Shown: piece by piece, positions 46,519-47,053 of the stretch
How positions within the stretch are numbered: position 1 is the first letter of the stretch
How the letters are laid out: the number at the start of each line of letters is the position of its first letter
IMG/VR virus record: IMGVR_UViG_3300033145_001096
Span: 650-64,649 of that record
DNA length: 64,000 nucleotides
Strand: one strand, 5' to 3'
Source: a virus
Notes under the pieces: model-generated
Told to the model about the DNA's origin: nothing
The model's database searches: none
The model's input: only the letters and a program-made list of their open reading frames with translations
Made by a program: the position numbers and the translations under genes

Positions 46519-46787
46519 TAGATTAGAACTCCTATTTCTGTTAATTTTTCTTGATTGAAAATATAAAGAGTTATATAATTGTATATTTTGAGAAATTTTT
46601 TCATTTTTCTTTTTGCCTTTATTCTCCAATAACCTTTAATTTCTATATAAGTATTAAATTCTGGTAAATAAAAATCAGGAGTATAGGTAGTATTTCCTAA
46701 ATCAAGAAAGTGGTTTGGAGTAAAGACCCAACCCCTCTTTTTGCCATAAATTCTGCTAACTATCTTATTTCCAATGCTTTGCGACAT
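46518..46787 (-). pseudogene. Chimeric ORF: DUF6088-like N-terminus (~31 aa) fused to a PD-(D/E)xK nuclease C-terminus
   Basis: MSQSIGNKIVSRIYGKKRGWVFTPNHFLDLG | NTTYTPDFYLPEFNTYIEIKGYW. Confidence 0.75.
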
Positions 46788-46803
46788 ATTATCAACCTCT
46801 CCT

Positions 46804-46843
46804 TTGTCACAAAAAGTATATATTTATTGTGACAAGATGTCAA
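46804..46843 (-). promoter_or_regulatory. Host-type sigma70 promoter with palindromic operator
   Basis: TTGACA (46838-46843)-17-TATACT (46815-46820); TTGTCACAA-14-TTGTGACAA inverted repeat (46804-46835). Confidence 0.85.
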
Positions 46844-46870
46844 GACATTTCTTTGCCCCTCTATTATTTG

Positions 46871-47053
46871 GTGAATTGTAACTCATACTGCAACAAAGTC
46901 AAGTCCGAAGTTGCTGTTATTTCTCAAGCACTCTTGGACCGCCTGTTTAGCTGACTTATACCCAAGAATCTTTCTTGGATAATTATTCATCCACTTTTCG
47001 ATATCCTTTATCTCACTCCTATCAAAGTGGCCTATATCTTCACCTTTTGGAAT
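46871..47053 (-). mobile_element. IS30-family remnant (transposase C-terminus plus terminal inverted repeat)
   Basis: Frame reads IPKGEDIGHFDRSEIKDIEKWMNNYPRKILGYKS; end sequence TGAATTGTAACTCATACTGCAAC resembles IS30-family ends. Confidence 0.75.

Follow-up and report, generated by a model that had tools for sequence, protein, structure and literature searches.

Probable capture of cellular DNA within a homing-endonuclease-type gene of an uncultured marine phage

INTRODUCTION

Host-to-virus capture of DNA by illegitimate recombination is known from phage morons and mosaic joints and from baculovirus populations (PMC4735498). As at the locus described here, these captures involve short cellular DNA, including a piece of a transposable element, a non-essential viral site and only a few shared bases at the borders (PMC4735498). 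The present patch differs from them in that it replaces the interior of a gene and adds no functional gene, and in that both junctions and the type of donor locus can be read directly from it.

The recipient resembles the free-standing homing endonucleases of phages (T4 seg/mob-type, NUMOD3/zinc-ribbon). Like these, it is a small modular nuclease wedged between conserved genes, its stop and start codons overlap those of its neighbors, it is absent from the closest relatives of the phage, and NUMOD3 occurs in its homologs. Its catalytic domain, however, resembles T7 endonuclease I and is not GIY-YIG or HNH, and whereas homing endonucleases usually pass through a cycle of invasion, decay and loss, the decay here has come by way of a foreign patch and not of point mutations.

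One of the two donor families corresponds to the AbiE type IV toxin-antitoxin system, with which it shares a DUF6088 protein carrying an AbiEi_4 signal, an AbiEii gene next to it and a promoter overlapping a palindrome. In contrast to that system, the phage has just 31 codons and the control region, with neither a toxin gene nor a complete antitoxin. Phage ΦTE reportedly evades the ToxIN system by acquiring host antitoxin sequence through recombination, and the captured antitoxin RNA is said to be functional and selected. In both cases part of a host abortive-infection antitoxin locus would have been taken up by a phage through recombination, but the fragment here is too short for an antitoxin and sits in a gene that is very probably dead.

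Here we describe this locus in the window, by which we mean the whole stretch of 64,000 nucleotides that was analyzed, namely, bases 650-64649 of a 69,856-bp IMG/VR virus record (IMGVR_UViG_3300033145_001096; linear, estimated 74% complete).

RESULTS

Genome context of the locus

The phage source of the window is an uncultured marine lineage, and the overall GC content is 29%. The replication and recombination module encoded in the window includes a DNA polymerase, an ATP-dependent ligase, a primase/helicase, a UvsX-like recombinase and an SbcC-like nuclease, together with an endonuclease VII-like protein and HNH endonucleases. Among the unusual genes of the lineage are those for a RuvB-like motor, an intein-bearing recombinase, Map, PDF and bS21; a search of IMG/VR for close phage relatives with the RuvB-like and 194-aa proteins returned none. 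Besides the broken gene described below, the phage genome carries several more nuclease genes of mobile type, and the genes at 9348-10226, 20735-21481 and 59048-59935 are one endonuclease VII-like and two HNH-endonuclease-like genes.

As judged from RuvB (83% amino acid identity), the closest relatives are two independent ENA assemblies, L126 and L127, in which the gene order is RuvB, a 157-aa gene and a 272-aa integrase. By blastn, at about 80% nucleotide identity, positions 48522..47371 and 46519..45434 of the window are contiguous in these relatives, so that the segment between them, 47370..46520, is an insertion of 851 bp (Table 1). This segment is the nuclease locus. It lies between the RuvB-like gene and the 157-aa gene, with stop and start codons overlapping at both ends and all genes on the minus strand, and no nuclease gene is present at this intergenic point in L126 and L127. 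In the more distant relatives L128/L129 and L130-L132, the gap between RuvB and integrase holds other small genes (three of 54-70 aa, or two of 130 and 212 aa); this gap is a variable region within the lineage. The intein of the Xer-like recombinase (44451-45433) is an insertion of 983 bp relative to L126 and L127, whose 272-aa recombinase has no intein. Because the nuclease locus and the intein are both insertions relative to these assemblies, two selfish insertions lie within 3 kb.

Table 1. Features of the nuclease locus and of the foreign patch within it (window coordinates)
Feature	Position	Strand	Description
Whole nuclease locus (both remnants and patch)	46520..47370	-	851-bp insertion relative to L126/L127
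N-terminal nuclease remnant, 111 aa	47375..47040	-	Three CxxC zinc ribbons and a GKNNP (NUMOD3-like) motif
Junction 1 zone (...TTAATTCCAAAAGGTG)	47041..47056	-	IS side from relatives; nuclease side inferred by paralogy
3' fragment of IS30-family element	46870..47047	-	Last ~57 transposase codons and right terminal repeat, ending ...GAGTTACAATTCACC
Upstream region of abiEi gene	46788..46869	-	Promoter, near-palindrome, AGGAG ribosome-binding site
Promoter TTGACA-17-TATACT	46843..46815	-	11/12 consensus matches
32-bp near-palindrome, putative operator	46804-46835	-	Overlaps promoter
First 31 codons of DUF6088/AbiEi-type antitoxin gene (MSQSIGNKIVSRIYGKKRGWVFTPNHFLDLG)	46695..46787	-	74-91% aa identity to N-termini of ~199-aa proteins
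Junction 2 zone TTGATTTAGGAA, coding DLG	46694..46705	-	12 nt matching both DUF6088 and nuclease genes
C-terminal nuclease remnant	46518..46703	-	T7-endonuclease-I-like PD-(D/E)xK core (TPDF...EIKGY) and tail
Chimeric ORF, 89 aa	46787..46518	-	31 DUF6088 aa and 58 aa of nuclease tail, in frame

The broken nuclease gene

The initial annotation had described a zinc-finger nuclease gene that breaks at ...LNSKR and is interrupted by DNA resembling that of a host. The break is as described: the 111-aa ORF ends in ...LNSKR (CIDCGCLLRTLNSKR), followed directly by a TGA stop codon that was created at the junction. Ribbon 2 of the protein reads CIDCGGKISSNSKRCYKC, and ribbon 3 has its first CxxC only, which by comparison with ribbon 2 means that ribbon 3 was severed immediately ahead of its second CxxC.

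The C-terminal remnant, whose stop codon shares bases with the ATG of the gene that follows, has a tail (58 aa in the fusion, 61 aa as used in the query) that is 60-68% identical, at near-full coverage, to 233 full-length proteins of 157-2000 aa (E up to 6e-18). The match is always C-terminal; PF05367 (Phage_endo_I) is present in most of these proteins and NUMOD3 in many. Of the 233, more than 60, picked by their C-termini only, also match the 111-aa ORF in blastp (the best N-terminal match, P0109, has 47% identity over residues 7-87). Since these full-length relatives bear both halves, the two ORFs are one broken gene. The zinc-ribbon/NUMOD3 part and the nuclease are fused in the relatives and, in the window, are separate ORFs parted by the stop codon and the patch.

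Comparison with relatives that hold the intact gene also gave the extent of the loss. Against the family alignment, the window lacks the remainder of ribbon 3 and the ...YK.I.MRSSWE.AYAK.LD.K.I.WLYEPK.F block, which in the family precedes the invariant DLGNTTYTPDFY; this amounts to roughly 55-75 codons. The first part of the catalytic domain is thus absent, and the window tail alone matches PF05367 at an E value of 0.013-0.017, under the cut-off. The corresponding domain of a family member, L072, aligns with the T7 endonuclease I structures 1m0d and 2pfj at an E value of 3e-7, and the PD...ExK core of T7 endonuclease I (gp3) is retained in the window. Compared with gp3, the family adds N-terminal zinc ribbons, the window copy is without the N-terminal part of the domain, and a candidate resolvase of endonuclease VII-like type is encoded by another gene of the phage.

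With a premature stop after residue 111, and with the first conserved acidic motif and the MRSSWE helix gone, the window nuclease is very probably inactive. Its presence and absence among relatives and its modular zinc-ribbon/NUMOD3 build make it a candidate free-standing homing-endonuclease-type gene. We considered whether it might be the essential resolvase of the phage and rejected this, as the closest relatives lack the gene and the phage has an endonuclease VII-like gene; the latter, being separate, would also make loss of this nuclease tolerable.

The IS30-family piece

The patch occupies positions 46694-47053 and has a GC content of 36%, compared with 25% and 29% in its flanks. Its anatomy and its donor families are directly visible, as are the missing middle of the nuclease gene and the lack of this gene in the closest relatives. 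It opens, as had been proposed, with the C-terminus of an IS30-type transposase in another frame: 57 aa are read in the second frame (47056..46883) and are 93% identical to L003 (94% at the nucleotide level), and about 15 bases follow from the transposase stop to the end of the element. In a species-level scan of about 185,000 genomes (one per species), the 57-aa remnant found two loci of one MAG at 93% and 86% amino acid identity; the other matches were at or below 67%, with the next at 61%. As DNA, positions 47056..46870 are 94% identical to L003/L066 and 88% identical to L004. A cold-seep metagenome contig of 1276 nt covers 46870-47047 at 97%, with only 5 differences, and also ends at 46870.

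The gene of L003 encodes a full IS30-family transposase with HTH_38 and rve domains (NF033563, 236 bits; cut-off 80). The remnant alone matches positions 240-267 of NF033563 at an E value of 1e-4, under the cut-off because of its short length. The IS end was correctly recognized, since homology to all IS copies, of which there are six or more, stops at the same base, 46870, which is the IS terminus. The two ends of the L003 copy agree at 22/37 bases when the right end is reverse-complemented, as expected of terminal inverted repeats, and the element is about 1.2 kb long. The window contains only the last 178-187 bp of it, and neither a left IS end nor a target-site duplication was found there. 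A second promoter-like site, TTGACT-16-TACAAT (10/12), faces outward in the IS right end on the minus strand (46875-46902).

The antitoxin piece

Beginning at the first base past the IS end, 174 nt of the window (46869..46696) are 93% identical to an Omnitrophota MAG locus (L074/L108; E 2e-71). This is the best abiEi match, and it takes in 17 more upstream bases. The interval 46869..46694 therefore represents, in agreement with the initial annotation, the upstream region, with its promoter, and the first ~31 codons of a DUF6088-like (PF19570) gene. The first 31-34 residues of the 89-aa ORF match N-termini from many MAGs. The 199-aa proteins of L070 and L074 match PF19570 (DUF6088) at an E value of 2e-45, with a weaker AbiEi_4 signal; the 33-aa antitoxin piece alone is without a profile match to PF19570. 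In L070 the next gene encodes an AbiEii nucleotidyltransferase toxin (PF08843, E 1e-39), and in L074 a similar 350-codon frame follows. The window has no AbiEii toxin gene, and codon 31 is followed there by the nuclease tail.

The same promoter and TTGTCACAA...TTGTGACAA palindrome are kept 5' of DUF6088 genes at 14 loci. In L070, L071, L074, L076, L078, L082, L083, L087 and L089, the promoter and palindrome are almost invariant about 100 bp upstream of the DUF6088 start, and this invariant control region spans MAGs that are labelled as different phyla and whose flanks differ. The abiE module thus seems to travel together with its control region.

The proposed in-frame fusion to the nuclease C-terminus was also found. 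The 89-aa ORF starts with MSQSIGNKIVSRIYGKKRGWVFTPNHFLDLG, goes on with NTTYTPDFYLPEFNTYIEIKGYW... and has NTTYTPDFY...EIKGYW as its nuclease part. It sits behind the captured promoter and has, as judged from its sequence, a strong promoter and a ribosome-binding site, and it is expected to hold too little of either parent to function. The IS30, DUF6088 and nuclease matches are all far beyond chance, and the homology search against bacterial genomes and MAGs identified the IS30 and DUF6088 pieces at 93-94% nucleotide identity.

An IS30-family fragment with an intact right end, in a family that has many copies in relatives of the donor genome, might suggest that the element transposed into the nuclease gene and that later rearrangements left a remnant. 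However, the sole IS end lies inside the patch, where it is still attached to the abiEi upstream flank common to L074; the other border of the patch falls within transposase coding sequence, and both a left end and a target duplication are missing. As neither patch border is an IS end, we reject an origin by IS30 transposition as extremely improbable.

The two junctions

In the zone of junction 1, relatives of the IS read ATTCCTAAGGGTG or ATCCCTAAAGGTG, and the paralogous ribbon 2 of the same nuclease gene reads AATTCTAAAAGATG. Over a longer stretch, the IS copies have ATTCCTAAGGGTGAAGA or ATCCCTAAAGGTGAAGA, the window has AATTCCAAAAGGTGAAGA, and the corresponding part of ribbon 2 has AATTCTAAAAGATGT. 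Over about 10-13 nt the window agrees with the IS relatives, apart from 1-2 mismatches, and with the paralogous nuclease ribbon, so a microhomology of about this length is plausible, with its nuclease side taken from paralogy.

At junction 2, DUF6088 genes read ...TTTCTTGA(C/T)TTAGG(G/A)AGTCG, nuclease genes read ...ACTTTTGATTTAGG(C/T)AA(T/C)AC, and the window reads CACTTTCTTGATTTAGGAAATACTACC. Among independent metagenome contigs, the match ends at 46694 for DUF6088-type sequences and at 46697-46705 for nuclease-type ones; homology to L002 begins at 46705. The stop at 46694 and the limit at 46705 place the crossover within 12 nt. The claim that both junctions fit both partners thus held for both sides of junction 2 (46694-46705) and for the IS side of junction 1, where the nuclease side is deduced from the paralogous ribbon. 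The lengths of shared sequence at the two junctions are estimates from relatives and not from the exact parent nuclease or donor locus.

The DUF6088 N-terminus WVFTPNHFLDLG encoded at 46695-46730 (W-V-F-T-P-N-H-F-L-D-L-G) resembles the segment that precedes the PD motif in the nucleases (W-L-Y-E-P-K-T-F-D-L-G), which is why the chimeric ORF aligns with intact nucleases in blastp only from residues 15-22 onward. The likeness is due to chance, and it supplied the microhomology of junction 2.

Real molecule or artefact

The record is a single metagenomic contig, and searches for an independent copy of the joints gave negative results. No public run was found to hold the phage (best word share 0.07, and word shares this small give no basis for a statement on habitat). 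In the four public runs examined (cold-seep, marine), IS, abiEi and nuclease-relative pieces were found separately, and the joints were never found. An exact-word scan of metagenome and viral contigs with the 32-mer just upstream of junction 1 returned no second copy and no intact parent, and plasmids searched with the patch, like phage records searched with the locus, gave no blastn match.

A true phage with an intact nuclease, into whose contig bacterial reads or chimeric amplification products were joined during assembly or library preparation, would be compatible with these results and with the higher GC content of the patch. IS elements are frequent points of breaks and mis-joins, and those of the MAG G002 described below stand at contig ends. 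A chimera would, however, need two mis-joins, each at an overlap of no more than about 10-12 nt, that lead the contig back into the gene it left with strand, order and reading frame all preserved. Graph (de Bruijn) assemblers join on exact words longer than about 10-12 nt, so the shared stretches are shorter than the words on which assemblers usually join. Both flanks are, moreover, collinear with L126 and L127, which are independent assemblies and lack the nuclease gene. We therefore consider a chimera quite unlikely.

Only 4 window-private changes are found at the about 250 patch sites that are conserved among relatives. With almost no private substitutions the patch, if real, looks recent, and a test for amelioration toward AT has too few private changes to say more than this; a fresh chimeric patch, with no sign of residence time, would look alike.

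Indications of the host

The best IS match in the species-level scan belongs to G001, a 1.4-Mb MAG titled "uncultured Planctomycetia" that falls in the same GTDB phylum sample as MAGs titled Omnitrophota. Contigs of Omnitrophota-titled MAGs also account for the abiEi-type loci L074 (G344:C46), L087 (G354:C54) and L075 (G161:C180), and 45/401 sampled genomes of the Omnitrophota phylum match the patch. G002, a relative of G001, has seven matches to the last 37-57 nt of the IS, six of them at 100% and one at 98%. They lie on contigs C9, C11, C16, C19, C21, C23 and C29, two of them at the first base of the contig. This pattern points to a multi-copy IS at which contigs break off, and of the two MAGs, G002 may be the nearer to the donor.

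The Map protein of the phage (window 2-721, minus strand) gives a second line of comparison. It is 60% identical to the Map of G001 (G001:C85), which has an ordinary chromosomal context, and 57-59% identical to a second Map paralogue in G038:C3, G372:C1 and G386:C52, whereas its identity to most other genomes of the Omnitrophota phylum is 34-51% and that to five genomes of other phyla, a thin control set, is 34-45%. The Map proteins of the Omnitrophota phylum at 57-60% are distinct and 242-244 aa long, and in three of these genomes a "standard" Map, at 41-44%, is present as well. The distinct form seems to be a Map paralogue common to the phage lineage and the Omnitrophota phylum.

Other cross-checks were negative within their scope. 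A locus scan with Map found nothing, and the protein atlas gave no useful taxa. Positions 1-20000 of the window had no spacer-like perfect match of at least 30 nt in the 401 genomes of the Omnitrophota phylum, only conserved-gene similarity and short AT-rich matches. Exact-word scans did not find the donor arrangement, the joint between IS end and abiEi, in metagenome and genome contigs, nor the abiEi start in genome contigs.

The capture may be real and its donor a plasmid, another phage or a mobile element, in which case it would carry little signal of host taxonomy. Modules of abiE and IS30 elements are typical mobile cargo, a 3.2-Mb MAG labelled Bacteroides has an abiE module at 92% nucleotide identity on a short contig, several phyla have more distant copies, and the IS-abiEi arrangement was not found in the scanned genome contigs. 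Against such a donor stand the placement of the best IS match out of about 185,000 species genomes in a single MAG of the Omnitrophota phylum (93% versus 61% for the next), the seven matches to the IS end in the related G002, the best abiEi match with its additional upstream bases in an Omnitrophota MAG, and the higher identity of the phage Map to the Omnitrophota paralogue than to the Map of the five genomes of other phyla. We consider a mobile donor unlikely and lean, with moderate confidence, towards Omnitrophota as the host. The initial annotation had spoken of a direct host fingerprint. The patch does point to Omnitrophota, but "direct" is too strong: the nearest donors are 93-97% identical and not identical, an IS next to abiEi was not found, and abiE occurs in MAGs of other phyla. 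Scans for the exact donor locus were negative, and the two donor pieces are of mobile kinds, so that support for the fingerprint is partial.

DISCUSSION

We suggest that the patch, of about 350 bp, represents a recent microhomology-mediated capture of cell DNA into a phage nuclease gene, and we put the probability of this at about 0.8. The same interpretation had been offered in the initial annotation, and it is supported by the shared bases at both junctions and by the identification of the donor pieces. Its origin in vivo and its mechanism, like the host, are inferred. During infection, about 55-75 internal codons of the nuclease gene would have been swapped for about 350 bp of infected-cell DNA. 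The donor locus would have been an abiEi (DUF6088) gene whose promoter had an IS30-family element inserted about 25 bp upstream, so that the donor joint was the right end of the IS followed by AAATAATAGAGGGGC, upstream of abiEi. The copied stretch would have run from within the transposase gene, over the IS end, to codon 31 of abiEi, with both crossovers in about 10-12 nt common to donor and recipient. The donor pieces abut exactly at the IS terminus, as in a normal insertion of an IS beside abiEi, and one capture event therefore suffices.

A deletion together with a templated insertion in the same orientation, with microhomology at both ends, may have come from two template switches or from microhomology-mediated joining, on the occasion of break repair or of recombination-dependent replication. 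Repair synthesis during the homing of the nuclease gene itself would be one attractive occasion. The UvsX-like recombinase, SbcC-like nuclease, ligase and polymerase encoded in the window indicate recombination-driven replication and the enzymes needed for such a capture.

Transcription from the captured promoter may extend into the 157-aa gene and the recombinase. It has also been considered that the captured abiEi promoter and operator place the 157-aa gene and the intein-bearing Xer-like recombinase under the control of the host AbiEi repressor, or that they act as a multicopy decoy that titrates AbiEi. We regard either role as very doubtful; if true, the phage would be using for itself a control region taken from an abortive-infection system of its host. 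The process by which the patch seems to have arisen is already known, and the patch is a clear further example of it that implies no new function.

According to a 2026 preprint (10.64898/2026.06.07.730766), Omnitrophota are known in public databases almost entirely from MAGs. For this uncultured marine phage lineage, the patch offers a physical lead to the host, and it points, at the confidence given above, to this phylum. As a snapshot of the flow of DNA from host to phage, it leaves the type of donor locus, both crossovers and the lost segment of the recipient readable from the sequence, and it would show a homing-endonuclease-type gene dying through a foreign patch and not through point mutations.
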